A stretch of DNA of 63,970 nucleotides, filler included, from Bipalium vagum (GCA_037834085.1; 3 parts of 3 records of this genome joined end to end with filler, not necessarily neighbours in it), one strand, 5' to 3'. Positions 837-63,800 are shown, counted from the whole stretch's first letter. Numbers and translations: made by a program. The notes: generated from the letters alone by a model not told the origin.

Positions 837-2097
837 CACAGCTGGACAAAAAAATGAGACTTTAACAAAATATAAAATTTTTAAAAAGATGTTTAAATTG
901 GTTAACATTTATTACATTTTTAATATTTAAGCTATTGCACGTAATATGTATGTAATTTGGTGTTTTTTTTTCTATTTGTTTTAATAATTCCAGTTATAAA
1001 TAAAATGACAGACACATTTAAATGTCAAAATAAAAAATCGGATATGTGGCCTTTGTTACACAAAACTGTTATATTCTGAAATGCAGACTATTTTGAAAAA
1101 ACATGGTATTCAAATTCCAATTTCCAAAATACAAAGAATTGGCTACCAGTTCAAGACAACAGGTTCTGTAAAAAGAAAACCAGGCTCAAACAGACCCAGA
1201 AAAACTACAAGTCGAGATAACAATAGACTGAAAATTGAGGTCATTAAAGATCGTAAGAAAACTATTACAAAATTAGCTGAGGAATTCAAAAATGGAAATA
1301 ATGAAACAGTTTCTCGAAAAAAAATTGCAAGACGAGTCAAAGAATTGGTGTTTGCGTATATGAGTTGCGCAAGGAAACCATTTTATTCAAAAAAAGAATA
1401 TTAGAGACAGATTAAATTTTTATAATCTTTACGGTATGTATGACTCTCAGTGGTTCCAATATGTGTTCTGGAGTAATGAATGTCAATTTGAACTTCATAG
1501 TGATGCCCCTGAACGCTGTCTTCGAAGATCATCTGAAAAATATGTAATGGAGTGTATTCCCACCTCAAAAAAACATGGCACTGCGATAATTATGGTTTGG
1601 GGAATATTTTCAACATCTGGAGTTGGTGAGCTTATACAATGTACTGGGTCAATTAATGCCAAAGTGTACCAAAGGATATTAGATATTGGCTTGCTTCCAA
1701 GCATCGAGAAGTTATGCACGGAAAATGAAAGACAATATATTTTTTTCCAACTGGACAATCACCAGATTAAGATAATCCCATTGAGAATATATGGGAATAC
1801 ATAAAGGCAAACTAGTCGGGAAATTTTTCAATACTCCTGACCACCTGTGGAAAGCAGTCGAGAAAGAATGGAAAATCATTAGTACAGAACACTGTCAGAG
1901 ACTATCATATAGCCTACCCAAACGGCTCAAGTTGCTTAAATTGGCCAAAAGGAAATATATCCCTTATTAATATTTTTTATTTAGTTAATGATATATTGTT
2001 TGAAAATTTTTATAAAATTGTTGTAAAATTGTTAAAATAAATTTTGTCATAATATATGATATAAATATGTAAGCATCATTTTTTTTATCCAGGTGTG
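837..2097 (+). mobile_element. Tc1-family (DD34E) DNA transposon, near full length, transposase disrupted
   Basis: Imperfect TIRs (cacagctggacaaaaaaatga at 837; catcattttttttatccaggtgtg ending 2097, followed by TA). ORFs 1081-1404 (HTH, GSNRPRKTT) and 1436-1804 (FWSNECQF, IMVWGIF), then an NPIENIW motif in another frame. Stops and frameshifts present. Confidence 0.9.
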
Positions 2098-42474: not shown

Positions 42475-45400
42475 TCACAAAACCGATATTTTATCTTGTT
42501 TCGAGCTTCTATACCGTTTCGAATGGTTTGGACGCTTCCGTTTTTCTTTTCTCCATTCCAGGAACTCTGTGTCTCGAAGCAGAGCCGTATTTTCTTCATT
42601 GACATTGGTTTCTGATGAGCTGCTGTCTAGCTCCGACAATTTTGACTGGATTGAACCCGGGAAATATTGATGTATCGAGTTTGGAAATCGGTGAAAATGA
42701 CCACGGACCCACTTGTAAAGAGTAGTATAGAGATTGGGAAATTTCAGGTCGATATAGTCCGCTAACCCACTCGGGTTACTGTTGAATAGGGTTTTTGATA
42801 GATCTATAGGCAGTTCGTGAAAATGGTTTCTTTTGTTTCTGAGCGCTCTAGCAAGATTTGACAGGTTCTTTGACTGCTCGACAGAAGACAGATAGAAAAA
42901 TCAATAACACCAATGCAAATGATGAGATTTTACAAACGCCAACCTTGTAACTCCTCTGGACTGTGAGATTCTCAATCAGCTCCGGTTCCAAATCATCTGT
43001 CCACTTGTCGGGAAATACGTCATTGCTTCTTTTGTCCAAAGAAGTCTGCAAAGTTGGATTGTTTTTCTCTATGAAATCTGAGACGTCCTGAAAACCAAAA
43101 AGAAAAATAAACCAATAAACAATCTCCTAAGCCAAAAAAATAACATAAATATTAATAATCAATAATTTTTTTTGCTATTTTTGTCAAATATCAACAAATC
43201 TATTGATCATTTCTGCGTGTATGATAACCTCGCGAATAATTTATTGATTCTCCTTCCACAGATATTCAACAAAAAAATTAATACAAAAGACTAATTAGTT
43301 CATGGATTTTTTTTTCGGTAACGGTATAAAGAAACTCATAGGACATTGGTAAAATGTTGTAGATGCCAATGGTGCATATTTTGATTCATAAAATTTTTTA
43401 TAATGACTTATCGACTTTTGATTTGTGATACGAAAAAGAAACAACACTTCCCCCAAACTAATATTTTATTCTTTTCACAACAAAATCTTAATTATGAACT
43501 TCATAAATGATAAAAAGAAAATTTGATTTTTTTTGCTTTCAAAACTTTTGAGATCACATTTCTCCAACCAAGTATTACTTAGATTTTTTTCAAATAAAAT
43601 AACAGAATTTATTTCGTAAAGATATTTTCATTTGTTAAAAACTGATCATAATAAAAAATATTAATTATTATTATTATTATCAAAAATTAAATTATAAATA
43701 TCATAATTAAAATGGTTGTAAAAAATTTCCAAAATAATTATTGAAATTTTTATATTTTTATTTCAATATAAAAAATAATTTTTGAATTTATTACGTTGAA
43801 TATGTTTTAAATAAATAAATTTTAAAATAAAATAAATTTTAAAAAGTTTAAATCATTGGTCAAGAAAATTTTTTTTTCGATTTTAATATTTTTTCGTATT
43901 TAATTAACTGTTTTATTAATTACTTATTTGTTGATATTCAATTTTTTAATATTTTAAACACAATGATCAATAAAGTTTTAGATCTGAAACATCTATGAAA
44001 TTTGACTTCTGTACATAAAAAAGTAAAACTTCTCTAAATCCACTCTATAATCGAAACACGGCACTTTGGGAAAAAGCAATATTATGCACTCTCAATAAAT
44101 AACAGAAAAATTAGACAAGATTTAATTTAAGTTACTTTTCATTACTTGAAAATAAAAAAAGTTACTTAAATAAATATTGATAAAAAACTTAGATTAAATC
44201 TTAACCTAAAAATTATTCGGATGAAAAATACCTGAAAGATAAAAAATTTTAAAATCAATATTTTGTTTTAAACAATCAATAAATATATTACATACAAATC
44301 TTAAGAACTATAAAAGAATTTTGAACTTCAAATTGAGACACTAATGAATGGAAAAAAATAAAAATGAGGCCCTATTGGTGAAATATTATAATTATGTATT
44401 ATAAATTACAAGATAATTTATAATAACATTTTTATAAAATGATCAATACAATTTTGAAAAATTGAGTTAAGAATTAAAATAATATAGATTCTAAAAATCG
44501 ATTTTAAATGTATTAATTAATTTTTTTCTACGATAATTTCATTAAATAATTATAATCAAACAAATTCAAAGTGAAACATTCTGTTTTATAAAAATCGTTG
44601 AAATACTAAAAAATCATTTTATTGAGATAAGGATAAAATCAACGTTCAGCTTTCAGTAGATAAATAGAATACTTACACAGAGAAATGACAACTTCTTCAA
44701 AGATTCCCAAAATAAAGGACCACAAAGAATTTCTTCTGCACAAGGTCTCTTACTCGGAGATGATTCAAGCATCATGGAGATGAAATACATGACCATGTAG
44801 TCTGTAGACCATATCAATTATTTTTATTATAATAAATCGCTGACAATGTTAAAATAATAATAAAATATTTCAAAAGTTCAATATTATTTATCTGAACACT
44901 TAAGATTATTGCTTCTACTTCAGAGCTAACACAAAATAAAAAATGAATAACATTTTGAAAAAATATTTTTTAAACAATTTTTTAACATAAATCGATAATA
45001 ATTTCTTTGAAATATTAATGAACAAATTTTTGCTGAATATTTATTAGCATAAATTTGAAACAATGAACTAAATCTGCTTCATGTGTAGTTTTTATATGGG
45101 TTAAATAATTACCATAAATTTGAAAACATGGTGTTGTATAATGTACAAAATATGACGAAAATGAGATTTTCACAATTATTGTTCGATTTCAGTATTTTTT
45201 TACTTCAAAATTTACTCGAAATAACGTTTTAAAATATTTGCATATTCTCTATAGCAGAAAGATAGCACCAGTTTCTTAAAAATAATCTTAAAAGAAAATT
45301 GATTTCAGCCAGTTTTTTTAAATATATTATGCAATCAGAAGTAAGAAATCACATTTTTATTAATACCTACCGGTTTGGAATACATAAAAGTAAGTCTTAA

Positions 45401-46439
45401 ATAATTTATTAATTGATAAATATGCACAATATTTAAATACATTTCATCAAACCATGGGGTTTTAATATATAAGCAATTTTTAAAAATACAGTTAAATCTA
45501 AATTATATGCTGAACATTATTAATTTACTAAATTTATTCTTTTAAGTTATTAAATTAAATTCCATAATAAATTAATCAGAACAATAAAGTAACTAACAAA
45601 ATACTTAAAAATTTTTTATAAGCAGGCATTAATTTTCTAAAACCAAGATATTATAAGTATTGAGTTGTTCCATTTTATATAGCGTTTTATATTTAAAATT
45701 CCACAACCTGTACCTTATTGGTTAATAAATATATATAGACAGTCAATAGTAAATATATTTGAAAATAATCTTATAAATAGTTAAAAATTCCCGTTATCTG
45801 ATCAGCCTCTTTATAATCATTATTATTTATTATTGATGTAATTTATATAAATAACTTAATGAATAATAAAATATACATTGTTGAACAAATGTTTTGACAA
45901 ATTAAAATAAAAATAGTGTTTATTTTATAAATAATCACTACCCATTAAAAAAGTTCGTTGTAAAATATATTTTCATAATTGCTATAATTTTAGGAGTTGA
46001 AAATAAATTTTATTAGAGAAATAAAAAATTCAAATAATTTTAATGGTTAATTTATTTTCTTCAGAAAAAAAAATTAAATTTCAAATAAGAAAAGAATTAC
46101 CAGTGATAAGACCGTGGTCGAGATGGTAATTTCCCTCACGAATTCTATGTTGTCGAGACAAGATGTCACTACCAAAAGGATGGTGTCCGTCGGTAAATAC
46201 GTAGTAAAACAAAATTCCACACGAAAATATGTCGCTACTTTTGCTCTATCATTTGAAAATGACAATAGACAATCAATGTTTTATATAATCAAACGTACAA
46301 TTCGTGTCACATCATCTCGACCAAGTTCCGGAGCCATATAACCCGATGTACCTCCACAGCCGGTTTTGGTGATTGAATTTCCACTATCTACGCTTTGGCG
46401 ACTCAGACCAAAATCGGTAATTATTATCTTGTATTGAAA

Positions 46440-46514
<75 letters not shown>

Positions 46515-49500
46515 TCTTAAAGGAAGTCGCAGCTGGACCTTATTTTTTCTCATAATAAGAACGTTTTTTGGCTTTAAATCGCGATGGACTGAAAAATTTT
46601 CTCTTTATTTTCGTATTAATATAAAAACGAATTTCATACCAATTCCTCTATCATGAAGATAATGAACGCCAACAACTATCTGTTTGCATATACTGAGCTT
46701 ATCCATGACACAAACCTCTTTAAGCTTAACACCAGAAACATACTCTTCCAGTGTACATTCACAGAGTTCCAAAGCAAGAAATGTAAATTCCCTTGACTGA
46801 GTCTAGAAAATGTTGTTTTCATTACTGTTACTATAATATATTATAATATCTCGAAAATTGAAAACAATTGTCACTCTACACATTTTCTATATTATTTTAC
46901 AAATAAAATTATTTATTATAAATATTTATTGACTTTTCAATCAATACTTCAAGTGATCATTAGTAATTTGACTGGGTTTAATAATAATCGTAATAATTAT
47001 ATATTAAAATAATTATATCCAAATAAGTTCTTGTAGATTTTATTAAATTGATATTTCATTAAATAGTTAACGAATTATTCCTCAGAAAATCAATTTGTTT
47101 TATTTGATTACTTTAAATGAAGCATATAATTTAAAATTTAAAATATCATTAATTCATATTTAAATTTTTTTAATAGTCAAAATTGCGGACAGAAATTTAA
47201 TCATTCGTTTTTGCTTACTTTATAAATTTAAGCCTGGATCATATGCCCTAGAAGCCAGTTGAAAATTTTACTCGGCATTTGGAGAAGTTGTAATAAAGAA
47301 AAGAACTGGTCGTTTTTGGTTCGAGAAGTTTCGTTCAAATGATGAAAATCTGTAAGACCCGTTAACATGACCAATGATGACTTGAGAAAAACAATCGAGT
47401 TATATTCAATTCAAACGTGTAAGGAGCTTGGTTTGATATTTAATGTCAACAAAGAAACAACCAGATTAGAAAGAGATAGTTAATAAGCAAGTTGGTCCCA
47501 CATGACTTAACGACAGAGAATGGATCTCTTCTCATCTTAATCTTAGTCATCTAAAAGTAAAGCCACATGGAACACTGATATCCGATTAAAGGTAAGTAAT
47601 GTATTCTAAACCAAAGACAACACATCATTGACTATCTCCTACGGATCCATTACAATAAGTGCTTATTGCTGGACATTGCACAAAAAGCTTTTACTGTGTT
47701 TGATGGACTTATGAGGGAAACAATCATTGAGTTCATAAAACCGAAAGAAACAATAACCGCTGACATATATTAGAAAAATTATTAGAGAAATAGCAGGCGT
47801 TAGTGAACAGAAATAAAGTTCTATTTCTTCAAGACAATGCTCGACCGCATGTTGCAAAAAAATAATGATCAAGATAACACAACTTGGTTGAGAGATCATG
47901 TCATCCACCATATTCCACTAATGTCTCGTCAACAGTTTATTTTTTTATTTGAAGGGAAAGAAGTTCACAAATGAAATGGATCTAAAAAAAGAAGCGCCAA
48001 TTTCTTCTTCAGTAAGAAAAAAGTTTTTTATGAAAATAGAATTACCAAGTTGCAAAACCATTTGGATAAACAATGAGATGGATCATATTTAATGAATAAA
48101 TATATCTAAAATTAGAAATATTGACTTTTTTTTTAAAAAAAAACTCAGCATTAAATATTTGGATACCATAACAATAACAACTCAAATTCAACAAAAATGA
48201 AAATTTTCAACATAAATATTTCAATATATTGAAAAACAAAATGAAACAAACCAGTCTATGTTTAAATATCAATAATTCAATTAAGCGATTTTTCACTGAG
48301 CATTTTATTTACTTTCTGGACATAAACTTTATAAAGTCTTAAAACATTGGTTTCGTGATATTTTTAGGCTGCTTATTTATTACCACATATTTTCAATTTT
48401 TAAATTAATCATTTTCATTCGTTATGAAATGTTAATAAACAAAAATAAAAAATCAAATCACTTTAGAATCAATTATTTAGCACAAAATAATAATAATAAT
48501 AATAATAATTAGTATTAATAATAATAATGAATGAAAATTGTTTTATTGTTTAAATCGTTTTCAATCATTAGAATAGTCTGTTACGACAGAATATATTTAC
48601 ATTTCTTATATGAAACTTGATCATAGCAGAACTATACAATTGTTTTCATAACAAGATTGATATTATCAAAACAAATGACATCATTTCCTTTCGGAAGACT
48701 TTCGATCTAGGAAATGTATCTAAAATACAAATATCGAATAGTTTACAATAGGAAAATGATCGATTATGTAAATGTGCACTTCGAAAATGAAAAGCAAATA
48801 TTATTCAAAAAGATATTTATATAACTACTTTACACTAGAAAATAACACAACAGTCTTGAGGAACCTATTAACATGAATTTTTTCAATGTGAATCGATCAT
48901 TAAACAATTTCGATCTCGAAACAATTTCTTCAACACTGACAGAAATCAAAATCTTTAAATTGAAGAATTTATCGATTGATTTCATACTAAAAACAGTTAT
49001 TTGTGGGTTTTATAGTGATTTTTTATAATTTACTAGAAAATTTTTTTAAGTCATTCAAAAACACTTTTATTGATCTCCTTTAATAGCCATTGACAATAAT
49101 AAAGATTGAGTCAATAATTTTTAAAGAAACGAAGTTATTAAATTGATTTTTAATTTATTTATTTATAAGTTTATTATTATTATTATTATATATATATTAT
49201 TTATTTATTATCATTGAATATTATTATTCTATTGTTTTACAGTATAGTATACTTTATTTATTATTAATACTATAATTATTATTTCTCACTGAATATTTTC
49301 AACCTAATTCATAAGTTTATAATGAAAAAATCAAAGGACTATCAAAATTGATGAACGTACAATATAGAAGCACTTGATCAAATTACTGCAATCAAATGAC
49401 TGACGTAGAAATTTGAGTTCGTGTTGAATAAGATCACTTTTCAACAATCTTTTAACGGCTACCGGTTGATCGTTGCTAAGAAAAACTCCTCTGAAAGATA

Positions 49501-51708
49501 AATAATTAATAGAAATAAAATTAATGTTATTTTTAACACAAATAACCAATCAATAGTTGAAGCTAAAATATGAAAAATATCATGAAAAATAATAACAATA
49601 AATATTATTATCATCAATAATAAGGAAAAGATAAATAAAAATACAAAAGATAAATACTCTTACTGATAAACAATCGTTCCGTTTGTGCCATAACCCAGAA
49701 CCTTATCTGGATAGTAACGCAGATCAGAAATTACGATCTCATCATTATCCTTTTGATATTTGATGTCACAAGAATTGTAATTGTCGTTTTTTGGCGTATT
49801 TTTATTTTGGTGATCTTGTTGACTCTTTAGAAACTTCTGAAAAAGTAAGGTCTAATTTAATGATATAAACAACAATTAAATATTAATCAGTTTTCCATTG
49901 CAAATCAATTTCAATTTTTTTCTAATTTTAATATTAATCAATAATGATCAATAAGAAAATTTAATAATGACAATTAATCAATAATATAAATAGTAATAAA
50001 TAATAAACAATAATATTAAATTATAATCCTTAAAATTACCGATAAATATCAATGGAACCTCACCTGTTTTGTAATGAGATATGTTATGTAAGTGACCATT
50101 ACAAACGTTGCGAAAACAAATATGCCTAATATCTTAATCTGGATTGAATCACCTTGTATAAATGACGATTGCTGATATGAATAAAGCTTATCATTCTCTT
50201 TGGAAATTAGAGATGTGTTGAATCTGAAATGAAAAATTAATTAAGCTGTTGGCTTAAGGTTGTATTATGAAAATGGAAAGTCATTACTATTAATAATTAC
50301 GAAAACCTGAAAACGGTTCCGGATTAATATATTATTCATGATACATCATTATTATTACAATCAGAATTTTAATTATAATTTTCCAATGTAAATCGACAAA
50401 TTTAAATAATGGAAAAATTAATTTGCACGCCGGTTTTCTTTTCACTTTAATGTAAGAAATATTTTAATTCTTAATCGATTAATTCAATATCGATAAAAAT
50501 AAAAACAATTACAATCGATATAATAGTTCATGAATAACAATTATGAATATAACAAAAAGCTAACGGAAATAAAATAATAATAATAAATCAATTTATTTTT
50601 GGTTATTTGAATGAAATGTATATTTATTCTTATTATAGATATTCACTTGAAAAACCCATTATAACAAAGTAAAAAAATTGTTTATTTAGTTATTTCAAAA
50701 TAATTAACGTAGAAATAAATTCCATGTTTGAAGAACATTCATTATTTTTTATAGATTTAATAGAAAAGCACCTGCTAAACCCGCACTTCTGCCTTACAAG
50801 TGTCGATAATAATTTGAAATTATGGTATGAGAAAAAAATTACAATCAATAAATTTTCAAAAATTTTTCAAGTAACAATAATTAAACTATTAACAGAAGTA
50901 TTACAATAATTTTAAAAAAATAATTCATAATAATATTTAATAATAATTATTAATAATAGAAATTTTAAAATATTTTTAAAAATTCAAAATAATAATCAAT
51001 AACAAATAGTAAAAATCAATTGAACTACTAACTGGATTCTATCGAAATCTAAAAGATAGTTCGATATGACAACTCTGTTATGGTTGTTAATAAACTTTTC
51101 AGGTGGGATTTCATAAAAACCTTTAATTAGTTTATTGTTGTTACTTAAATCTTGGTTTTTTATCGATCCGTTCACCGGTCCAGCTATCAATGGCAAATGT
51201 TGACGAGAATTTGTTTTAATTTTATTATCCTGGTGAATGAATGTCTTGAGCACGTACCAGCTGTTTGTTGCCTGACCAAAAAAAACTGCTTTCCTTTAAA
51301 AAATAATTAAACCAATTGCAGTATAAACCACATGGGAACATATTGAAATATAAATCGGAAATATTTTTTAATCAAACTATCAGGGAGAAAAATATTTATA
51401 TCAAATAAAATAATGTAAAGTAAAGATATTTCAATAAAAAAAATTTCAAATAATCAATATTTGTTTAAATTTGAGCAGTTATGACATTAATAAAAATTTA
51501 ATGTTAAATATTTACCGAAATCCATTCAAATAATTTCAGAGTAAATAACCCTGTTGTATTTCAAACAATAAATGATTAAAATTAAAATCCTAAGCGAAGA
51601 AAAATCATTTAATTTAACAGAGTAATAAAATCAAATTAATATCTTAAGTTAATATTAGAAATGTATAGGAAAAATGGAAATAAATTGTAAATTATTAAAA
51701 TGTTGCTG

Positions 51709-51746
<38 letters not shown>

Positions 51747-54700
51747 TCAATAAAATATAAGGATAGTTTTATAACATCAATTTTTTTATATTTGAATTTA
51801 AGTAACTTATCATCTATTTTCTCAAAATTAAAAAAAAATTCTTATTTGACAAATAGAAAATAATAATAAAATCAAGATTTAATTTAAATTTTGAAAATAA
51901 AAATGATACAAGACAAGGAAAATTGATTTTAATTACTATATCAAATTTAATAAAAAAATCTTCATCTGTAATATTCTTCTATTATCTTTCACTTAAGATA
52001 TAGTGAAAGAAAAACTAACTCCACCTCTCAGTTATCGATGCATTTTTGGTTACTATTAGCAACAAGACATGTATTTGTTTAAAATAATGCTCTTTTCATG
52101 TTTAATTTTGTTTTTCCATTAATACTTTTCTTTGTAATTCTTTAAATTCTAACAAACTTTAATGAACGTCGATATTCCTGTAATAGTTTCATTTTTCTAA
52201 GTGTCAATCATTGATATAACAGAAAAGGACTACTTCAAACCAAAATATAAAATAAGAACTCTCAAAAGAATTATTGAAAAAATTGGCAAACCCAAAAATT
52301 TCAATAGAATCTTATAAAAACACTAAAGTCAATGAAATAATTCAATTATAAACAATATTTAAATATATATACTATTTTGTTATACAGGGTGTTTCATAAA
52401 TATGTATCCGCGTTTAAAGAAAAAATAATCAACTAATTTTCAACCGTCTTTTTGTACAAAAACTATGCAAATAAAAATTGGCTATCAACCAATTTAATTA
52501 ATAATATATTGAAATAGTTTTCATTCCTTGGACATCCATACATTTTTGTAATCTTGGCAATACAGATCTGAAAACTTTCTGACAAAGATCTACTGGAATC
52601 AGACTGATTTCTCCAAAAAGTTTTCCAGATATTTATAAAATATTTATACTTTTCCAGTGATTTATCTTCAATAGTACATGGTGTCCCAAAAGTCAGTGGT
52701 AATTTGAATGTTTTATAATTTTTTGAAAATTTGATTTAATTGAAATTTCTTGACATTTATATGATAATCGATCTTTAAAGTTTTATTAAGACTTAAAAGA
52801 TTTCAGGTAAAATGAGTTTTTGTATATAAAAAATGATTCCTGTTCATTGAAAAATTCTTATTGTTTAAACGGGTTTTTTTAAACACCCTGTATGTTTAGT
52901 CAATTTAAAATCTATATGTTTATAAAAAATCATAAATCAAATATCACCAAAAATATAAATCAATATGTAACTAATTGATTTAAAGTTTTAAAAAATTAAT
53001 TAAAATTGCGAAATACCATTGCGACATGAAGTTCAATAAAAATCTATAAATAAAAAAACGATAATTAAAATTTCTTAGATATTGAATTATTATTGAAATT
53101 TTTTTCGAGTTTCTTCGAAATGTTGCTTTACAAAAAATAAATAATATAAATATATGTTCACTAAAATTTGAAAAAAGTTAAAAATCAATGTAAGACAATC
53201 TTAAATGATGAAGTATGCCAGGCTGTCCAATATATCTTTAGGTATACAGAAATAAAATGAAAAATCAATATTTTATATATTTTTAAATAGTTCAATACTA
53301 TTGAATTTCGTAAAAAAATCTTTATAAACAAGATAATCAATAGAAAAAAAAATATTATAGAATATTACTTTAAGGAAACTTGGTTGTGATTCCAAACAGA
53401 TTTATTGAAGAACAGATACAAAAGCGTCTGGTGCGACATGGACGTAAATTGGACTCGGCTGAGAATGCCCTGAGAAGTGATCTCATATAATCCCGTAACC
53501 GACGAGTCCAGTGTGGTCGACCAGCCGGTTTCAATGTCTGATCAGAATCACGATTTTAATGGAATATCGATCAAAAAGTGTACAGTTAACAAACCGTTCG
53601 TTTTGAACTTGGTAACAACCAGGCCCGAATCACTGGACACGTAGTGGCGCATATCTGCAATGGAAAATCAATGAGAGGATATGAAGAAATCAAAAACTCT
53701 GAATTCAGGCTTTCTTTTAATCTAATTTTTAATCGACTCACCGTATTCGTCCAAATCAGTAGCGGCGTGAGTTGTCAGAGAATTGAGGAAAACGTTGTAT
53801 CTGAAAATGAATTTTTTTCATTAACAAAAAATTAATTCTAAACATTCGCAACTAATTAACCTGTAAAAGAAGCACGAAATGTTACTAGTTTATCAATATA
53901 TTTAATTAGTTCATGGTGGTTTCCGTTACAGAAAGGATAAGAAACAATGTGGTCAGTTCAGTTACTTTCGGTAGTTTATAAGAATTGATTGAAAAACGAA
54001 ATGATAAAAGAGAAACAGTAAAGAATTGAGAAAGCAAACAGAAATAGCAGGATGTGATTATACTGATTTTAGAGAAAAATATCCGAAATGTTTCATTAAG
54101 AAGAAAGAAGATTTAAGCCAACCCTTAACACGTTTTTGTTGGTTAGTATTTTTGTCTAAAAAAATAATAAGGATAGATTTTAAATGAAAATTTTATTAGA
54201 ACATTTAAAATTGAATTCTTGCTAACGAATTCAAACTTTTTACACAGAAATCTCAAAGCATTTTGATATAATGAACACTGACGAAAGTGTCAAATTTTAA
54301 TGGGAAAACCAGTGAGCGAAAGAATTTAAAAAGATCGTCTCAAATATGAGAAGGAAAACTTTCAATCCAGAGATTAGTGAAAACTTTATTTCGATGATAA
54401 CGAATGTGATATTTCTTATTCATCTTTTTCCAAAGAAAAGATCCAAGGTGGTTGTCACAAATACCACTTTACTGATTAAATGGATTTTTTGGTTCAATTT
54501 ATTGTAGTCTTCGTTACAAAAATAATAAGACTTGATATTTCAACTTCTTGACAATACATCTAATTGATTTTTTATTGATTAGAAATAATCAATAAAAGAT
54601 GTTACATCAGAGAATTTTGGAAAGCCCTAAGAACGAAGTTCGCAACATTATTTTAATAACTCATATTAAGATAGTTTCAGACTATAAAAGGGGAATAGTT

Positions 54701-56614
54701 TTAAATATTTCGTTATTGATTTTTCCGTTAATTTCCAAGGCAATGTAGTAAATGAAAGAAGCTTTGACAACATAAAATCCAGAGAAATAGTGAGGATCAA
54801 TGGAAAGCATAAAGGAAATTCGAACAAAATAGTTAAAATTTACTTGAAATAACAAAAATAATGAGTTATTTCATTTTCCATAGACGAGTTTCACATATAA
54901 AAATGCAAAGATTGTGCGATACGAAGGTGTACCTTCGTTTTAAAAGATCATTCTCCATCATTATCAACAAGGATTGTTTTTTTTTACAATGAACTTCTCT
55001 GAAAACATGTAGCTTAGATTATCAACAACAAAACCAAACGATAACGTAACTGTTTTCAACAATCCGGATCAACAGACACTGAAATTGAATCCATTAACCG
55101 ATCAACTGCAAATACACGACCCACCACAATGACACATGGTAATGTGTTTTATTTGATTTTCTTATTAGAGATTGATTATTTTTCTGAGATATGGCCAATT
55201 ATCAACAATAAAGTAATTATTTATTTATACCAACGGTTCTCGACCTTTTCAAAAATATTACATTTTTCCTAATCATAAACATGCAACCCCTATGGTTTTG
55301 AAATTGAATTTCATGTTTTTATAACAAGATCCAGATCACTGTCACTACTAATTTCGAGGTAGCGCTTCAGGTTGCTGGACTCTATTAACTCCTTGGATAG
55401 AACTACATCATAAATGATATACTGGTTTCACATTCACATTCTTGTGAAAAAGAAGTTTAGAAATGCCTCATTTTAACTTGTTTCAGTGATGTCGATGATA
55501 TCATGGAGCAGAAATATATTTGAGAAAGAGGAAGAAGTCAAGATTCCAACAAAAGAAAATTTTGAAGTTTTAATAAATGTGGGGAAAACTGAAATAACAA
55601 CATAGTTTTCAATTTTTGCGGAGGAAAAAACATTGGAGAGCGGTGACACTGTAAAGAGAACAGAATTTCTCTAAAAATAAAGTGAAAATGATAATCATAA
55701 AGACTATTATTTGTGAATGGAAAACTCTCCTCTAGCGTTTAACATTAAACAATATGTATATTATACCTATTTTTTCCATTCTTTCTGGGATCTAAGAAAA
55801 TACAACCTCCTAATCACAGGTTGGAACCATTGATTTAGATGATGTCCATATATTTCACAAAGACATGAATTTATTGTCATATTTCGAATAAATTCATAAC
55901 TTTGATACCCTCCAGGAAGAAAAACAACAACCTATAATCTTATGGTATTTACACTATTTAACCGTTTTTTCTCGAAGTATTAATGTTATTACAAGAATTG
56001 AATATTAAATAATATAAACTTACATTATTTGTCTGCTAGTGGGTTCACTCACTACAAGATTGTATTGGCAAATCCCAATGAATATCGTTCGATTTAACTG
56101 AATATTGTGATTGCTCTGAGGACAATTGTCATTGTTACCCGTTTGATATTTGTGTAGAACTTCACCGGTTTCGATATCTATTGACAGCCATTGGTCGCTT
56201 TTGCTACCAGTTAATAATAGGTTATCTAGAAATAACGGAGTCTTTTTAACATAATCCATCAAACTATATTCCAGGGGTGAAAACACATTTCCAGTTATTT
56301 GATGATGAAATATGTACAGTTTTCCGTTGATTGGATTTGGAATTAATATTGAGCCATTAGTAGTTGTTGTTTTGATCACAGGTGATAATTTAGTTGACCA
56401 CTTTAATTCACCAGTATATCGATCTAATAAGTGAATATTTCCATTTATTGTTGATGCAAATAATAAATTATCATGTGAATCCTGAAAATATTAGTATTAG
56501 TATTAGAAGAACCTGTAACGAAATACAAACATCGGAAATTTTCAAAACTTCGTTTTCACAACTACAAAATAAGCACAATATATGAAAGATAAAGACTGAA
56601 ACATGTATAATCAT
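42475..56614 (-). CDS. IRE1: IRE1 serine/threonine kinase / endoribonuclease (UPR sensor); 15 exons, 939 aa
   Basis: Phase-consistent GT-AG exons: 56614-56531, 56481-56024, 53800-53742, 53654-53595, 53537-53369, 51293-51033, 50223-50064, 49836-49664, 49490-49361, 46802-46640, 46588-46299, 46245-46101, 44801-44677, 43087-42944, 42873-42475 (2820 nt). Signal peptide MIIHVSVFIFHILCLFCSC. Luminal domain LLFASTINGNIHLLDRYTGELKW and LIPNPINGKLY. TM ILGIFVFATFVMVTYITYLI. Kinase LGYGTNGT, VAVKR, ALELC, HRDLKPKN, DFG, APE, DIFSCGILFYYVFTDGHHPFG. KEN RNase RSYK...LARALRNKRNHFHELP. Confidence 0.95.
43200..43462 (+). mobile_element. mariner 3' fragment in an IRE1 intron
   Basis: GIKKLIGHW*NVVDANGAYFD followed by a TIR-like end. 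Confidence 0.65.
46440..46514 (-). repeat. Coding (AAT)25 microsatellite = poly-Asn in the IRE1 kinase domain
   Basis: In-frame within exon 46588-46299, between HRDLKPKN and the DFG motif. Confidence 0.9.
47010..48170 (+). mobile_element. mariner element in an IRE1 intron, decayed
   Basis: IRFCLLYKFKPG, WVPHDL, QDNARPHVA and HPPYS motifs. Confidence 0.85.
52385..52890. mobile_element. Non-autonomous Tc1/mariner (MITE-like) element in an IRE1 intron
   Basis: TA-flanked inverted ends cagggtgttt / aaacaccctg; about 500 bp; no intact ORF. Confidence 0.7.
53860..55750 (-). mobile_element. Possible highly decayed piggyBac-like element in IRE1 intron 2
   Basis: Fragmentary DYNK...DQ-like motif near 54500 and a coding-like composition. 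No clear TIR pair. Confidence 0.25.
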
Positions 56615-57483
56615 ATTTAAATTGTATATTTAAATAATTATACTTTTAACACACAATACAATTAGCATAAAACTTTCAAATTTACAGCGAATATATTAAA
56701 TTAAATTTAATTGTTTGAAATATTAAAACAAAACCTTATTAATGATAAGTAATTATCAAATTAATTTATCCAAAAAAAATTTTTCAAAACAATAATGCCC
56801 CATGGACAATTATTTCAAGTTTTAGAGTAGTAGAAAATGCTTAAATCATAAGAAATTGTTATTTTTGATTGCTCAAAACTCTTATGTTAATGCTTTTCCG
56901 GAATATGAGATATTAATAAATTTACCGAGATTTTATAATATTGTAAACTTATAGTCGCTGATAAATTATAAATTAATTATTTATTCAAACTTAAGTCATA
57001 ATTAAAAAAATATTCTATAATAACTAAATTGACAATCTTTGAAAATCTATAAACGTAATTACACACAAGTTAAAATTATTTATAACTTTCAAAGTTTCTC
57101 AAAGATACATCTTTGAAAACCCTTATTCCATGTTCTTAATACAAAATGAGTATATAGATAATATGAAAATAAATTCGCAAAACCATTTTTATTAAATATT
57201 AAGTATTTATAAGAGTGATTTTGGTATTTAAACATATAATTCAAAAATTCATAATTTATTTCTAATCAACTTTATTAAATAAAAAAATAATTTCCATCTG
57301 AATCAACAATTTTTTGCGATATGTTAACAAGTTATTTATACCAGTTCAAAATAACGATGGTTCAAAAATCACTTCTTGTCCATTAGGTAAATTGGTAGCT
57401 AATAGACATATCTGTTCGTGGCGGGCGGGTATAATAGCTTGATCCAGCACAATGGCTACATGATCAGCATTTTTACAACTTTT

Positions 57484-57819
57484 TTAGTGTATAAATTTTA
57501 ATTGTTGAGTTACAAAATCAAGGATAAATCCGCGAATTTTTGATAAAATATCCACGCTAATTATACACTCGAGTTCATTATTTTCCATTAACTTCAATAT
57601 ATGATCTATATCGTGACCCATTATTCTAATAATACTTCTGCATGTTCCTAATAAAGGTACTAATTTGCCATCTACTCCTATTACTGATATCGGTGATGTG
57701 TTTACTGCAGCTTGCTCCTCTGCGTTTAAAAATCGAGCGTCAATGAGAGATGTCTGTGCTCTAGTATATACTAGAGCCAGAACTCTATGTTTATTTACTT
57801 TGATCGTAATCATGGGTCG
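57484..57819 (-). pseudogene. Retroviral-type aspartic protease 2 (catalytic motif decayed)
   Basis: RPMITIKVNKHRVLALVYTRAQTSLI...VIGVDG...IISVDIL. YTR differs from DTG by single-base changes (TAT vs GAT, AGA vs GGA). Followed by IIPARHE, typical of the PR-RT linker. Confidence 0.8.
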
Positions 57820-57987
57820 GGTTTCGTTGGTTATGAATGAATTTCTTACGTAATTCACACTAGGTGGTGGTGAATTATTGTCGTTTCTATTTACAGGGTG
57901 ATAATTAAAATCGGAAAATATGTCTATTTGATCAAATAATGAGAGGACTTGTTGCATACTGATTGTGGCATTATATTCGGCTACGGC

Positions 57988-58617
57988 TAGTAGAGTTATA
58001 TTTTCTGTTAATTGCTTGTCTCGAGCCATGTCTAACGCAGTTTGACCGTATATATTTCGGTGAAATAAGTTTACATCAGGCCTTTTAAGCAATATTTTAA
58101 TTATTTCTGTATTTACTTCATGACGGCTTGCAAGATGAAGGGGTGTTTCATCGTTTAAATATTCTCTCTCGTTTACGTCTGCCATAATTTCATTGTCGTA
58201 TCCTCTGAGTTCAATCATTAACTTTACTGCTTCTACAAAATTTGATGACACCGCTAAATGTAGGGATGTTTGAATGTTGTTTCGATATCCTTAGAACATT
58301 TGGGGTAAGTGTTTGCATTGGATTTGTACCATTAAGTATCGCAAGGCATCTATATTGGTGGCCTCTAAAGCATGGTCTATAATTGATTTGCCTGCTTTGT
58401 CCCAGTGATCTATTTTACATCCACTCCCAACTAATTTGATTTTTACATTTAATGAAATATCACATGCAGGTGTTACTAGAAGTGGTGTATGTCCAAAAGT
58501 ATTTTCGAAATTGAGAACCAATCTAAAATTATTTTTTATAATTTAGATTATTTCAAGTGCTCCTGCTGAGTTTCCTTTCAAAATTGCGTTGTGTAATATG
58601 GTATCACCGTACTTATC
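57988..58617 (-). pseudogene. Six ankyrin repeats (IkB/Cactus-like) inside the retroelement polyprotein
   Basis: GDTILHNAI, GHTPLLV, GKSIIDHA, QTSLHLAV, ETPLHLAS and GQTALDMA. Same reading frame as both proteases; two point stops. Confidence 0.85.
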
Positions 58618-58984
58618 AGGAACTGTGAATAAAGCAGATATCTTTCTAGCCATTTCGTTGAAGGTTTCTTCCTTTGTTAAGCCCATTGCAAAATAATGAG
58701 CTATTTTGGACATGTCAGTAAAGAATTGTCTTAGAGCATTTGTGTGCATATTTGAGTTTACTGTGGCGGGCATAGGTGTAACTATCATGACGGGTTTTTC
58801 TATCTGTTGATTAGACTCGTTTAAGGTATTGTTTTCGTTTGTGCGGTTTTCTTCTGCCATTTCCTCTATTGTTTCTTCTCTAATGCCAAGTACCTCCTCA
58901 AATGATTGAATTGAAGATGCACCACTAGATGAAGACCTTTCACTATCGGATTCTTGAGGATTTTCTGTATACATTTTATTTGTT

Positions 58985-59292
58985 CTTAAATTTAGTACCA
59001 AATTGGGAATCCTTTTTAATAAGTCCATGCCTACTACACAACTACTGGAATTTGAGTCAATTAATTATATGGTATGTTCTAATACTTGGTTTAGGAGGTG
59101 TATTGTACAATTTAATGTACCTGTGAGACAATATGGGGTATTTCCTACTTCGTATGCTACCGTAGGGTTATATTCGAGACGCTCTTCCTCTTGTTCTGTT
59201 AAAATTTCCTTGTGTAAGCATCACGTTTGTGAACCCGTATCAATTAATTCTAACATTATATGCTCATTTATCTTCATGACTACATATGGCCT
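58985..59292 (-). pseudogene. Retroviral-type aspartic protease 1
   Basis: RPYVVMKINEHIMLELIDTGSQT*...CVVGMDLL; intact DTG; two in-frame stops. Confidence 0.85.
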
Positions 59293-59739
59293 TTGGTCTC
59301 TTTCTAATCCATCCATCATCATGTATGATGTACGTTGAGGTATTCCTAAACGAAACATAACATCATTTTCTTGAATGGACTTTCGAATTGTTGTTAGTTC
59401 AGATTGGGGATATACAGTTGATCGGTTTGGCAATCTATCTAGGCTGTTGGTTTGGTGTGTCTGAAATTCTATTGTTTAAATTACAGGGGGTGTTTTTGTT
59501 TTCTTGGAAATACTAGTTTTAAATTTATTGTAAACTTGTGAGGTGGTACTATAGACGTCTTTTGGTTCCTCTATATCCTAATTAGGCCAGTAATCTTTGG
59601 GTTCTGTGATTGCGGGCTTTGACAATGTTGATCCATTGTCATCATGGCTATTATTATGCTTCCTATGGTGATGATGCCGGTGCTTTGAAGTTCTGGTAAT
59701 GGGTTTGTATCTATAATGGCATTATTTCCTCAATAAATC

Positions 59740-61520
59740 AATGTCTTTTCGATGTCTTTTGTGCAATTCTCGATTGGCTGTTGGTGAACATATGGCTATA
59801 ATTAATTTCCATGAGCATCCTAGTGCGTGATGTAAACTGCGGCCTGACATAAAGCTGCTACCGATTCCTCTTAGTATTTGGAAAATGAAGTATATACCTG
59901 AAAATCCGGCAACCCATGTGCCAAATGTATTAAAACCTCCTCAAATATACGTGATGACATTTTTTGCTGCATGTATGTAATGGTCTGCTCCGAATAATAG
60001 GTTGTAATCCATTTTCCTTTACCGGGCATTATAAATTTTCGTGATCATTTCTATTATACTTCTCTTTTGTGCCTGAGGAAAGAGTATTACTTTCCTGGCC
60101 TGATCAATGTCTTCGGGAGAATATATTCCTCCTTCATTAATAGAAGACAATGGTGTAAACTCAACCATATTTTGTCTCTATTGTTTGTACTTTTTCTCTT
60201 GGCGGTTTCCTCTCCGGTAAGGCTATCCATTGTTCACCGATCTTATATAAAGGGGATATAATGGGACCACACATGGCTATTTGAGGCTGTACATTTACTT
60301 CTAGTATTATTATAGTTAATGGGGATACAAACCTTAACATCTTTTGATAAATAATAGGTAAGTCACTAGTACATTCGTTAAATTTTCCTAACGGGACATT
60401 TACTTTCTCGTACTTGTACTTGTACAAGGCTTCGCCCATTTTTCGACTGAAAACGCCATCCTGTACTAATAAGGGTGATGTCAATTCGGGATTATTAATG
60501 GCTAAAAGTAACCGATTTTTTAATATTTCACGTCCTAATTTGCAGTCATTTAAAATAGTCTCTTGATATACGTCTTTTAATTGTTCCTGTAAATCGTGAT
60601 GTAGATAGACTATTTTATTATTTAAATACATATTTAGCTTGATATCTGAGCTATCTTTTATACTCTATCCTTAGTGACGTTTCAATATAATAATAATAAC
60701 CTTTATAATTGGTTTCAAATACTGCTACTCCACACTTTACTACTTGTTTCTTAATAATCAATTGGATTATTTCCTTTTTATCCGTTGTTATTAGAACAGT
60801 AGGTGTTTTTGCTTCATCTATGGCAGAACTGCGTCTAGGAGCTGTTCGGTAATTTTCTGGAATTTTTGTGTATTCATTTTGGGTGTAGTTAAGTCGTACA
60901 TCAGTTATTTCTTGAAATTTTGTCAATTTCAGACTTCTCAGGTTACAATGATCTTTATTATTGTCATATAATAGTGTTGCTTCTTTTGTAACATAATATC
61001 CTTTTTACAAATTACAACTGGGTTTCGATAATAGTTGTCCGGTAATGACATCGAATACACCTTCATACATAAGTAGTTCAACTTGATAGTCCTCTATATC
61101 TACATATATCGTTTACATCTTGTCCAGACATCTTTTTCTGTTCTCCTTCGCATTTCCCATTATAATCTATTGATCCCCTTGTAACTATTTGTCTTGTTAT
61201 TGTATTTTCCTTTACCACAATGGCTATTTTGTCATCTATTCTAATTTTATTGAATTGAAAATCATTTTCACATGTTTCGGCTGTTACACGTACTTCTCGG
61301 GGTAATAATTTAGCGGATATTATTGAGTTATGATACGTAATTTCTTGCACCATAGTTTTTGTGGTAGCTACGTTTCGTATGGTTAAATTATCGGGGTATT
61401 TGTAATATATGGTGAAAATCGTTTCTACCTCTGACCATTCTCTCTCTATTTTTTGTAATAACTGAAGCTCTATAGGGGAATTACTCTATGAAATCGTAAG
61501 AAATGTTTCACCTCTTCAAT
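59740..61520 (-). pseudogene. Chuvirus-like envelope glycoprotein (env)
   Basis: Colinear motifs IELQLLQK; GSIDYNGKCEG; YLNNKIVY; CKLGREILKNRLLLA; MGEALY; CTSDLPI; FVSPLT; GGIYSPEDID...ILFP; TM region FGTWVAGFSGIYFIFQILRGIG...LHHALGCSWKLIIAI. These match my recollection of Jingchuvirales G proteins and their retroelement-borne copies. Confidence 0.75.
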
Positions 61521-63185
61521 GTGAATTTCCCGGTTATCCATTGTTGTGCTATTTCGTTAGCATTTCTTACCTCTATTGCTTTATCTGAAATAATAGTGAT
61601 GTGGTTAGATGCCTCTTGTTGAGGTTCGCCTAATCTCTCTACATTCGCATACTTCTCTCTTAATAATGATTCTAGTCTATCAATGTGTGACATGCTTGCT
61701 TCAAGTGTATTATTTATTTCCTTATTATCGTTTACAATATTTATTTTAGGTGTTAGTGCGGGACAACTTCTCTGTAAGTGTCCAAATTTTCCACAAATAA
61801 AACATTTTGTCTTTCCCTCAACATTTACTTGTTGACGTTGGGGTGAGTTGAAATTTATGCTCTGTGGCTGATTAAAATTTATACCTTGAGGTGGGTTAAA
61901 ATTTATACTTCCACACACGTCTTTTACGTGTCCTCTTTTTCCACATTGTAAGCATAATAAATTTTACGCTCTGCATTCATTGGCATTATGATTTTGTCGT
62001 GCACATTTAGTATATTGCTTATTAGCATTATTAATTTCTAATTATTTACTCCCGATACTATTATTATATTCAAATGATTTTCCGTAATTATTATTGTACT
62101 CTAATGGTTTATTATTATATTCAAATGATTTGCTTGCAAAATTATTTCCATTATTATAATTATTTCTATTTGTATATTGATTTACTGGGGTTCTCATTTG
62201 GTTTCGTTGGTTACCTCCATCTAAAACATTATAAGGCTTAGTGGAGTATTCATTTTTTTTGTCATTGGGACATTCTCGGGCTCCATGACCCATTTCATTA
62301 CATTTATAACGTTGTATTTGATTATTACTATTATTTGTTTTAATGGGAGATTTTGGCCTTAATCCGGGGGACTGCGGACTTTTACTTATTACATTTATTG
62401 TTTTCATTTCTACTGCCGTTTTTGCTAATTTTGCCTTTTTTATTAATTGTTCAAACACTTCATCTCTATATAGCATAATAGCTGCTTTGATTTCATATCT
62501 TAAACCTGACCACCATTGGTCTTTTACTATAACTTTGGTATTTTCGTCCCACTTATCTTGTAAACCGAAAGCTCTTTGGGCTACGGTTCTTAAATTATGT
62601 GTATATTCGGATACTGTTTCGTTTAATTTCTGTTTTAAACTATAAAATTGTTGCCTAAATAAATGGCCTGTGTCACCTGTGAAAATTTGTTCTTCTAATG
62701 CTGCTTTTACTGATGCCCAATTGTCATCTTTTCCTTTAGCTACTATATCTAAATAGGCGTCTCTTGCTCTACCTTTTAAATAAGTGGGGAGTCTGTTCAT
62801 CATTACGTTTTCGTTAAAACCATATGCGCGCATTATTATATAATAGTTTGATAGAAGATCAGGTAATTCGGCTGGGTTTCCGCTATAGGTATCCATCTTA
62901 ATATAACCAGTATACGTACTCTATTGTCTTCATGCTCACTTTCGGTCATTTTATTTAATTTATTTTTATTACTTTTTTCTGTAAAATTCGGGCGAGTTTG
63001 AAAACGAGTGATGATAGGTTTTTCAACAATTAAACTTTGCTTTTTGGACTTTTTAACTTTTACTTTTTTAACTTGGCTATCGGATTCGAAATTAACAGTT
63101 GTTACGTTTAGAAAATTATTATTATCTTCAGAATCAAAATTATTATTATTATCAATATGTTTTTGGCCACACCAATAATTTCCAT
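61508..63185 (-). pseudogene. Retrotransposon Gag with four CCHC zinc knuckles
   Basis: Capsid-like LPTYLKGRARDAY...W...LKQKLNETVSEY...GLRYEI. Knuckles (R)YKCNEMGHGAREC, (Y)TKCARQNHNANEC, CLQCGKRGHVKDVC and CFICGKFGHLQRSC. ORFs starting 62896 and 61918 share one frame. Confidence 0.9.
61838..61909 (-). repeat. Three 24-nt tandem repeats in gag, encoding (S/G)INFNxPQ
   Basis: SINFNPPQ GINFNQPQ SINFNSPQ. Confidence 0.85.
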
Positions 63186-63259
63186 AACATGATAGATTTA
63201 TAATTCTATAAGTACTTTGATCCAGTCTTTATTTAACTACCTGAAAGAATATGTTGAAG

Positions 63260-63800
63260 TACATGTTTCCAATCAAAACTTTCCAAAGCATTATATTTTT
63301 AAATGCAGAAAAGGCGATTTTTTTAAGAACATCACTTTTTAAGTAATTTTGAATACAAATCTAAAACATCCGTAAAACATTTTTTTTATATTTAAAAGGA
63401 CCAAACACATCTTAAAAAACAGTCAACCTCATGAACAATTAAGATACTCAAAATACGTATCTTATATTCATACCTTTTTTAATCACCTCTTGGACCCCTC
63501 TTGGTATGCTTTCATAAGGATTTTTAATCTTAGATGCTGAAATCATTGCCCACTGCTCCCCCGAATTCTTCCACAGTGCCTCAATATTTTCCGGCCTATA
63601 CATAGCAACTCTGGATTTCAGATCAGCCCAGAACGACTCAATTATATTCAGATCTGTTAATTAAGCGGGCTAATCACTCAGTAAGCTTAACTTGGAATTT
63701 TTCAAAGTCACCAATCTTGATTTGTGACATGGAGCTCTAGTTGAAATATATTCTGTGCCTCATATAGTCCTCCTCAAGTTTATTGAACACTTGACATTTT
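63260..63800 (-). mobile_element. Tc1 (DD34E) 3' half
   Basis: APCHKS, DLNIIESFWADLK and NPYESIPRGVQEVIK motifs. It abuts the 5' end of the retroelement gag. Confidence 0.8.

Follow-up and report, generated by a model that had tools for sequence, protein, structure and literature searches.

The window (the whole 63,970-nucleotide stretch analysed) contains, very probably, a decayed, 3′-truncated member of a GAG-ENV-POL retrotransposon family that is present in many copies, is likely Ty3/gypsy and related to the planarian Burro elements, and likely has a planarian host. This copy itself is dead. Our best overall explanation (probability roughly 0.7) is that the family made a polyprotein, running at least from the Env tail to the second protease, in which an ankyrin module, a candidate IκB-like inhibitor, is bracketed by proteases. 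A Pfam profile search of the window revealed Gag, a chuvirus-type (gB-like) Env, a first protease (PR1), an ankyrin module of six repeats and another protease (PR2), colinear on the minus strand; the sequence-only reading had given all five domains the same place, strand and order. The features, in the order of the element, were as follows.

62950..63240, minus strand: multi-copy leader rich in AT, for which neither an LTR partner nor a defined 5′ end was found
61508..62949, minus strand: gag; frame broken once near its start, stops at two internal positions and at 61510
59740..61500, minus strand: env, fusion glycoprotein of the chuvirus/gB type (PF24664), with point stops and three frame breaks
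59302..59739, minus strand: spacer following the Env anchor and sharing the frame of the Env tail and PR1; P0020 is homologous over its length (31% identity)
59005..59301, minus strand: PR1, retroviral-type aspartic protease; D-T-G kept, two point stops
58732..59004, minus strand: Ser/Glu/Asn-rich linker, read directly from the sequence
57967..58731, minus strand: ankyrin module, six repeats preceded by N-terminal helices specific to the family; interrupted by two point stops; Ank_2 E 7.1e-15
57487..57828, minus strand: PR2, pol-proximal aspartic protease; catalytic D-T-G motif not intact in the window copy
57350..57486, minus strand: first part of the PR-to-RT spacer, preceded by a stop; end of the truncated element

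The four ORF starts that had been reported as congruent are all 0 mod 3, and the shared frame proved longer than claimed, running from within Env (60168) to 57355 with 10 stops in 938 codons; the other two frames have 98 and 71. The Env tail is in frame with PR2, which joins Env to the pol side in one polyprotein, as in Burro. The earlier reading linked gag and env to this frame by isolated frameshifts; there are five frame breaks in all, at ~62920 (gag start), ~61500 (gag/env), ~61100, 60660 and 60170, the last three within env, in addition to the gag stops. Homology reaches ~45 codons beyond PR2 into the pre-RT spacer of relatives and ends at ~57350; P0031 (1076-1235) and P0029 (253-415) align over PR2 plus the 57350..57486 stretch. 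This PR-to-RT spacer is named dUTPase-like in the available text on Burro (PMC6431247). Pfam and repeat searches of the window revealed no RT, RNase H, integrase or LTR and no long direct repeat, the copy being 3′-truncated and ending near the window edge; the family assignment therefore rests on relatives at 25-45% identity.

Gag matched Retrotrans_gag (E 4.5e-8, ~62788-62567) and zf-CCHC (E 1.2e-5). It has four zinc-knuckle positions, two with intact CCHC (61954 and 61804) and two degenerate (62311 and 62014), and its combination of capsid domain and CCHC knuckles is that of Ty3/gypsy (Metaviridae). Relatives of the element carry gypsy-type RVT_1, RT_RNaseH, Integrase_H2C2 and rve and no BEL-specific family. 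Membership of BEL/Pao (Belpaoviridae) was rejected, no BEL-type protease or Gag Pfam family being present in the window or in RT-bearing relatives.

One intact natural ORF of 4,844 aa (P0161) reads Env-PR-PR-PR-PR-ANK-PR-RT-RH-IN-PR-PR, with an ankyrin of the same family as that of the window. P0026, P0031 and P0046 are natural single ORFs of the form Env-PR(s)-RT-RH, and P0020 follows the path Env tail-spacer-PR in frame. The order RT-RH-IN, absent from the window, was found among P0161, P0026, P0031, L001 and L002. At the gag/env junction the window copy has a stop plus a frame change, and several indel variants occur among the contigs; Gag or a knuckle is fused to Env in the natural ORFs P0017, P0028 and P0031. 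The Env tail, PR1, ankyrin module and PR2 were presumably made as one polyprotein, likely continuing into RT-RNaseH-integrase. The single long polyprotein envisaged earlier is upheld for the part from Env tail to PR2, and P0161 continues into RT-RH-IN; in the window family a Gag-Env fusion is putative.

The multi-copy state was evident from contig depth. All 24 bins from 57198 up, on the element side, had a summed contig depth of 2,100-55,000; in the flank below 57198, five of six bins had 25-55 and one had 1,693. At the gag/env junction, 30 of 30 bins were covered by multi-copy contigs (lowest 290), and along the element rows of 8-36 contigs extended 31-177 bases in both directions. The element is spanned by no contig; those listed within it are pieces of 167-529 bases, so that linkage is by overlapping tiles only. 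High-depth contigs show clustered differences from the window copy shortly upstream of the gag/env junction, and some continue unlike it, so other subfamilies may differ. Three of the 10 long-frame stops coincide with the 24 difference rows listed for that stretch (~0.3 expected; 40 of 991 rows; compared by hand), and three of the five frame breaks are at or next to one of the indel rows listed (12 of 38; also by hand). The stops and frame breaks look private to the window copy. Location of the element inside an IRE1 intron was ruled out: the signal-like first exon starts at 56614, and the element lies ~740 bases upstream. A host-gene search gave two matches among 8,000 sequences scored, the one with a name being a starfish protein at 28%.

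Three pieces of Env, arranged as in the profile, matched Monjiviricetes_fusion (PF24664; 91-157, E 4.5e-4; 301-447, E 1.1e-26; 466-638, E 3.4e-20), and Env showed homology (28-42%) to intact relatives over nearly its whole length. In the Env tree it grouped with polyprotein-borne Envs (89/95), separate from the stand-alone glycoproteins of 655-668 aa. P0100, in which Bcl-2 precedes Env, fell in the same clade; this feature and the tree grouping support the kinship with Burro-like elements that had been raised earlier. The position of Env between gag and pol and its chuvirus/gB type are features of GAG-ENV-POL errantiviruses, and the window element has both. For the captured RNA-virus fusogen proposed at first, a fresh capture was not supported: this Env is ancient and common to the whole clade. 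No signal-like hydrophobic stretch precedes Env in any frame of the window copy. The best 15-mer hydropathy in this region was 0.39 in the gag frame and 0.53 and 1.13 in the others; the same region reached 1.5-2.8 in 11 of 11 relatives having the Env start motif (12 relatives examined). The C-terminal membrane segment of Env is weak (1.34, near 59928-59872). With its breaks, its stops and no signal-like stretch, the window copy does not encode an intact, secretable Env with signal sequence and anchor. In this copy, the missing signal sequence ahead of Env casts doubt on the infectivity suggested earlier.

PR1 and PR2 are 24% identical. In the protease tree they clustered with P0020, P0042 and P0114 (92/89), and the pair is, judging by this grouping, a duplication within the element's own lineage. 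A single clade of pre-ankyrin proteases was rejected (p-AU 0.00016) in clade tests that were chosen after the tree had been seen and that left out the degenerate protease immediately preceding the L001 and L002 ankyrin. This test ruled out one mobile 'protease-ankyrin' cassette common to P0161, L001 and L002. At least two proteases were found in 7 of 12 relatives having Env sequence and a protease (P0040 and P0161 form one cluster, and several of the ORFs are incomplete). The number varies from 1 to 7 per ORF among relatives, and some copies are degenerate. Proteases in this clade have evidently been duplicated repeatedly, and separately in different lineages.

The ankyrin module has six motifs spaced 34-41 aa apart and belongs to the same family as those of P0161, L001, L002 and the planarian protein P0072 (UniRef T1E117, 'BCL3-1', from Dendrocoelum lacteum), to which it is 29% identical over 174 aa (E 4e-20). 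In the ankyrin tree the window, the element-borne copies, P0072 and P0052 formed one clade (97/94); P0093, more distant and without element domains, was sister to the whole group. Residues 27-119 of P0072 matched RHD_DNA_bind at E 0.0028, which does not reach the Pfam cut-off. For the N-terminal 265 aa of this protein, no PDB sequence matched and folding gave pLDDT <50, the predicted model being poor outside residues 325-460. The closest non-element relative of the module is, as far as homology indicates, a planarian protein with a weak Rel-homology match, and a host NF-κB-like gene is the likely source of the module. Regarding the host origin claimed earlier, membership of one family with a planarian cellular protein stood, and the direction of transfer was not fixed by the trees. 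PDB matches to the ankyrin were generic, Kidins220 and DARPin ranking ahead of Bcl-3 (third) and p100 and IκBα ranking low; the N-terminal extension matched no solved protein in PDB. The ankyrin profile gave 34 pattern matches in viral contigs and 3 in prokaryote genomes, none of them confirmed. Among longer proteins, a word-seeded search with PR1-ANK-PR2 yielded 2 matches, to generic ankyrin, from 7,454 candidates, and one with the middle Env piece yielded 1 match from 486. The available text of PMC13563047 shows no immune role for planarian RHD proteins.

These features are consistent with the following mechanism. Across the clade, Env would be threaded into the ER by a signal sequence that follows Gag, and its C-terminal anchor would keep the enzymes in the cytosol as a tail that the element's own proteases then release. 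In the window element, a duplicate of the pol-proximal protease would have come to bracket the ankyrin cargo, probably through recombination between related genomes. The two proteases would then cut the module free in soluble form; solubility is predicted because no membrane segment follows the module in the window, unlike in six of the seven ankyrin-bearing relatives tested. We consider protease release of the module fairly likely. Viral IκB mimics bind Rel-homology dimers and keep them inactive. By analogy, the freed module might bind host Rel-homology dimers and hold them inactive; we put this forward tentatively. Such mimics have about six ankyrin repeats, related to the C-terminus of the host IκB/NF-κB precursor, and lack the Rel domain; the module has six repeats and forms one clade with P0072, whose Rel-homology match is weak.

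The same element could instead carry the ankyrin as a passenger, or as a scaffold for particle assembly or processing, with the second protease a recombination scar. This is a minority possibility that draws on several observations: the module lies before RT in P0161 and the window and after integrase in L001, L002 and P0012, a membrane segment follows it in most relatives, unlike a soluble IκB, its PDB matches are generic, and protease number varies with some copies degenerate. However, the N-terminal helices and six repeats are kept across elements only 27-35% alike, both are shared with a cellular protein having a Rel-homology match, and PR1 retains D-T-G despite its divergence from PR2. 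Flow in the reverse or lateral direction, in which planarian RHD-ankyrin genes acquired ankyrin from elements, or elements and viruses exchanged it, appears improbable. P0072 and P0052 do lie inside the fork of element-borne copies, whose monophyly was not found in the tree, yet was not rejected (p-AU 0.119); but RHD-plus-ankyrin is an old NF-κB precursor layout according to the available text of PMC6211748, and the sister position of P0093 also argues against such flow.

Less likely than not, in our view, is a non-autonomous or non-infectious derivative that lost its Env signal long ago, with a Gag ending at or near its own stop, and that was copied in trans or intracellularly. Such a derivative would account for the missing signal-like stretch, for the short gag/env junction being itself tiled by multi-copy contigs, for the weak membrane segment and for the absence of RT-IN from the window. 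It fits poorly with the homology kept over nearly all of Env, with junction contigs that diverge from the window copy and may represent other subfamilies, and with a break after PR2 that falls mid-spacer, as from a local deletion. Least probable by far is a nested insertion or local chimera, in which a separate protease-ankyrin element sits inside an Env-bearing one. The low PR1/PR2 identity and the lack of any single contig across the stretch would allow it, but one frame runs across all three junctions, every bin has multi-copy cover with contig rows crossing along the stretch, P0020 has Env tail, spacer and PR in frame, and PR1 and PR2 are close kin. Because the stretch is multi-copy and an intact natural ORF (P0161) has the same order, it is not nested debris. 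The sequence-only reading had staked itself on one element rather than nested ones and on a layout not yet described; the former held, and the latter fell.

Since its headline layout is known, the element founds no new class. The candidate new points, both drawn from sequence comparison, are protease duplication in the clade and kinship of the ankyrin to a planarian protein with a weak Rel-homology match. In the open literature, that is, outside subscription journals, Repbase Reports and figures, we found no description of repeated protease duplication in LTR retrotransposons or of a retrotransposon-captured IκB-like ankyrin in planarians. The prevailing view is that retroviral-type elements need a single protease; a clade with two to seven, separately duplicated by lineage, runs against this expectation. 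If the IκB-like reading is true, the element-borne module would offer a handle on whether the divergent planarian RHD proteins have an antiviral or anti-transposon role, because two unrelated parasites appear to have acquired the same type of inhibitor domain.

GAG-ENV-POL elements are already known from flatworms, nematodes and bryozoans. According to the main text of PMC13524379, these 'ancient errantiviruses' (Platyhelminthes, Nematoda, Bryozoa) have the same gag-env-pol order, a chuvirus-like gB-type Env and multiple copies; that text contains no mention of 'ankyrin' and one of 'protease', and describes no cargo or protease duplication. Compared by eye with the six Schmidtea Envs in supplement 2 of that paper, the window Env has their motif pattern and is identical to none of them; the six Schmidtea elements span 14.5-18 kb. 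Anakin elements of mosquitoes have the same Env type, a chuvirus glycoprotein (PMC7642597, cited in PMC12440569, as far as these texts were available), but are BEL/Pao, whereas the window relatives carry gypsy-type domains. An in-polyprotein Env between gag and pol with ankyrin cargo is known from planarian Burro, so that this layout is not new. The available text on Burro/GYPSM1 (PMC6431247) describes one polyprotein, a Gag with 2-3 CCHC, an Env in frame between gag and pol and related to mononegavirus fusion proteins, a protease followed by the dUTPase-like spacer, ankyrin cargo and an AT-rich host. Burro ORF1, at 4,873-5,140 aa, additionally has MATH, BIR, SMC, BCL2 and SUMO-like domains (same text). 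In the window, Gag abuts Env without these cargo domains and PR2 is reached within 5.5 kb; that text names one protease, whereas the window has two bracketing the ankyrin. Because only ~100 codons separate the last knuckle from Env, with no MATH/BIR/SMC/BCL2/SUMO-like Pfam match, the element is evidently Burro-related and not a Burro member, set apart by description. The planarian nidovirus PSCNV likewise has ankyrin in a giant viral polyprotein, and the available text of PMC6211748 gives as its closest kin planarian proteins from Schmidtea and Dendrocoelum, some of them RHD-ANK (T1E117 is not named there), and proposes IκB mimicry. PSCNV differs in being an RNA virus with three repeats and a membrane-linked product, and mimicry is only proposed in that text. 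Speculatively, planarian GAG-ENV-POL elements could form a modular cargo system in which duplicated proteases free captured host domains, one of them an IκB mimic derived from the flatworm NF-κB-like gene, a host module that the nidovirus captured independently; the compact family of the window would then be its clearest example, with a soluble inhibitor of six repeats excised between two proteases.

The minus strand of 57100-63500 was translated in three frames, and the pieces were scanned against Pfam with X in place of stops. The feature is real and was rightly seen by the sequence-only reading; its proposed order (Gag, Env, protease, ankyrin, protease) was borne out. Gag matched Retrotrans_gag (E 4.5e-8), with two intact and two degenerate zinc knuckles, and Env matched PF24664 (Monjiviricetes_fusion) in three pieces that kept the profile order. 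Intact relatives aligned along Env in four segments, which together reach from 61332 down to about 59704. From 60168 (Env tail) to 57355, one frame had 10 stops in 938 codons, vs. 98 and 71 in the other two, indicating that the Env tail, spacer, protease PR1, linker, ankyrin module, protease PR2, and start of the next spacer were formerly one frame. The common frame claimed for PR1, linker, six ankyrin repeats, and PR2 thus holds, and takes in the Env tail. Five frame breaks lie upstream (gag start, gag/env junction, and three in env). PR1 and PR2 are 24% identical; D-T-G is present in PR1 and absent from PR2 of this copy. Homology stops at about 57350, inside a spacer that precedes reverse transcriptase (RT) in the protein relative P0031, and no RT, integrase (IN), or LTR was found in a search across the window. 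The window copy is dead and truncated. The element has 33.8% GC and 40% A on the coding strand; the window is mostly 19-33% GC. The N gaps near 25328 and 41005 (176 N in total) adjoin long (AAT)n tracts, and none lies within the element.

Contigs were taken from one public DNA run, which may be the window's own source and hence is not independent. The flank up to 57313 had exact contig matches at depth 22-25. Above 57198, all 24 bins had summed contig depth of 2,100-55,000, a measure that is not copy number; we infer that family copies number in the hundreds. Identity of the 4,358 aligned contigs was ≥99% for 432, 95-99% for 890, 90-95% for 1,479, and <90% for 1,557, a spread indicating a large, mostly old family. 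The gag/env junction was covered in 30/30 bins (minimum 290). None of the contigs listed spanned the whole element, so linkage is pieced together from contigs that overlap. Where differences from the contigs are best supported, few or none of the contigs carry the window's letter; three of 10 stops and three of five frame breaks fell on such sites among the few rows listed. This suggests that the stops and frame breaks are private decay of the window copy.

When the 894-aa frame was searched with phmmer against 1.84 billion representative sequences, 1,259 matches were obtained. The best 150 were listed and all aligned back to the window, and 26 of these were Pfam-scanned. Single ORFs with Env before the enzymes occur among the matches listed.

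Domain orders in natural relatives (PR, protease; RH, RNase H; ANK, ankyrin)
P0026: Env-PR-PR-RT-RH-IN-PR; single ORF, Pfam
P0031: knuckle-Env-PR-RT-RH-IN; single ORF, Pfam
P0046: Env upstream of enzymes; single ORF, Pfam
P0017: knuckles-Env-PR x4; single ORF, Pfam
P0028: Gag-Env-PR-PR; single ORF, Pfam
P0100: Bcl-2 ahead of Env, a Burro hallmark; single ORF, Pfam
P0161: 4,844 aa, Env-PR-PR-PR-PR-ANK-PR-RT-RH-IN-PR-PR; cluster member

P0161 and the window have a common ankyrin family (30% over 217 aa). In a metagenome scan, 143 sites matched the pattern and 4 were confirmed; in loci L001 and L002, an ankyrin module of the window's family is placed behind integrase. In a 16-row tree of a 150-aa Env piece, the window joined 10 Envs of the polyprotein type (89/95), and four glycoproteins of the stand-alone type fell outside that group. 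The relatives' ORFs and the Env tree indicate that the window's domain order is genuine biology of a clade. Judged from these relatives, RT-RH-IN very likely followed PR2 originally.

L001 and L002 have a membrane-anchored domain after the ankyrin module, and two accessory ORFs each downstream of the polyprotein (L001 6861-9923, L002 7268-11517), one of them with an RNase T-type exonuclease (E 6.5e-9 and 1.5e-11); L002 also has a weak ubiquitin-like ORF. P0031 (HBK71150.1) is an Env-PR-RT-IN polyprotein deposited under a Flavobacteriaceae MAG; it probably represents animal sequence that was wrongly assigned to a bacterial bin.

A 34-domain protease tree grouped PR1 and PR2 with P0020, P0042, and P0114 (92/89), within a looser group (93/92) containing proteases directly before RT. 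A clade of ankyrin-preceding proteases was rejected (p-AU 0.00016 with five rows, 0.00025 with three; groups chosen after viewing the tree). Tree and rejection together indicate that in the window lineage the lineage's own pol-proximal protease was duplicated, leaving a copy on each side of the ankyrin module, in an event separate from that in P0161. At least two proteases occurred in 7 of 12 relatives having Env sequence and a protease, with seven in the single ORF of P0161 and four in that of P0017. Neighbouring copies paired in the tree (P0017 PR2/PR3, P0161 PR1/PR2, P0028 PR1/PR2), pointing to repeated, independent duplication.

With an ankyrin profile made from natural relatives, 16 of the 161 proteins scored reached 69-255 bits (five of these had been used to build it), and none of the others exceeded 37. 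High scorers included P0072 (UniRef T1E117, 'BCL3-1'), a cellular protein of the planarian Dendrocoelum lacteum, and two unnamed proteins resembling it. P0072 has a basic cluster ahead of the repeats and a sub-threshold Rel-homology match (E 0.0028), which neither PDB search nor folding confirmed. The window ankyrin, element copies, P0072, and P0052 formed one clade (97/94); the trees are compatible with transfer in either direction between host and elements, and solved-structure matches were generic. P0093 and P0052 carry the same ankyrin family and preceding basic cluster without element domains, and are possibly additional divergent NF-κB-like proteins. The kinship of the ankyrin module with planarian proteins makes a planarian host likely for the element.

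A hydrophobic signal preceded the Env start in 11/11 relatives with a start motif (12 examined), and an anchor closes Env in relatives. As in type I membrane proteins, the signal would take Env into the ER with a cytosolic tail; the enzymes would stay on the cytosolic side as part of that tail, to be released by the proteases. The protease-bracketed ankyrin module would be cut free in soluble form, like an IκB; the brackets, and the absence of a membrane segment behind ankyrin in the window (present in 6/7 relatives), argue for soluble release. We put the probability of release by the proteases at about 0.6; that the freed module mimics IκB is possible, with the odds somewhat against it. In none of the three frames did the window copy show a signal-like stretch ahead of Env, so either envelope function was lost in the family or the junction decayed. 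The earlier interpretation was right only in part; nothing seen supports its suggestion of potential infectivity.

Neighbouring genes and remnants in the window
42475-56614 (-): IRE1-like host gene, exon domain set
from 56614 (-): its signal-like first exon
56020-56490 (-): its beta-propeller exon, Pfam
46281-46604 (-): its kinase exon, Pfam
42475-42900 (-): its RNase exon (Ribonuc_2-5A), Pfam
14737-24110 (+): DUF4062 + NACHT gene, 693-codon exon
63430-63700 (-): Tc1/mariner-type transposase remnant, DDE_3 E 0.025
1009-1804 (+): Tc1/mariner-type transposase remnant, HTH_Tnp_Tc3_2 E 3.5e-6

The domain set of the first gene reads as that of a putative IRE1; the element lies on the strand of this gene and ends ~740 bases upstream of the gene's start codon. 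An (AAT)n tract at 46440-46515 encodes ~25 asparagines in frame within the kinase ORF; it could be either a short intron or a genuine insertion. The best named match of the NACHT gene was a TEP1-like starfish protein (28%). The 63430-63700 remnant adjoins the element's leader, and probably accounts for high contig depth to the window end.

In the planarian nidovirus PSCNV, the ankyrin has its nearest kin among proteins of Schmidtea and Dendrocoelum, of which two have an RHD-ANK layout, and IκB mimicry was proposed for it (PMC6211748). Schmidtea has seven divergent RHD genes, without a shown immune role (PMC13563047). Burro/GYPSM1 elements encode one polyprotein, in which Gag has 2-3 knuckles, ankyrin is among the cargo domains, Env resembles the fusion proteins of mononegaviruses and lies in frame with gag before it and pol after it, and PR is followed by a dUTPase-like spacer (PMC6431247). 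GAG-ENV-POL elements with gB-type, chuvirus-like Env occur in flatworms, nematodes, and bryozoans, including six Schmidtea families of 14.5-18 kb; their Env was argued to be ancient, and ankyrin is unmentioned in the main text (PMC13524379). The headline architecture is thus already published. Neither duplicated proteases nor IκB-like cargo was found for such elements in the literature searched; Grohme 2018, Repbase, and figures, outside the search, may show some. Two leads lend themselves to testing: the independent protease duplication, and the tie between the cargo and NF-κB-like proteins of planarians. The window's element lacks the giant cargo-filled Gag-Env interval of Burro; it works like both of these kinds of element and belongs among the GAG-ENV-POL elements.
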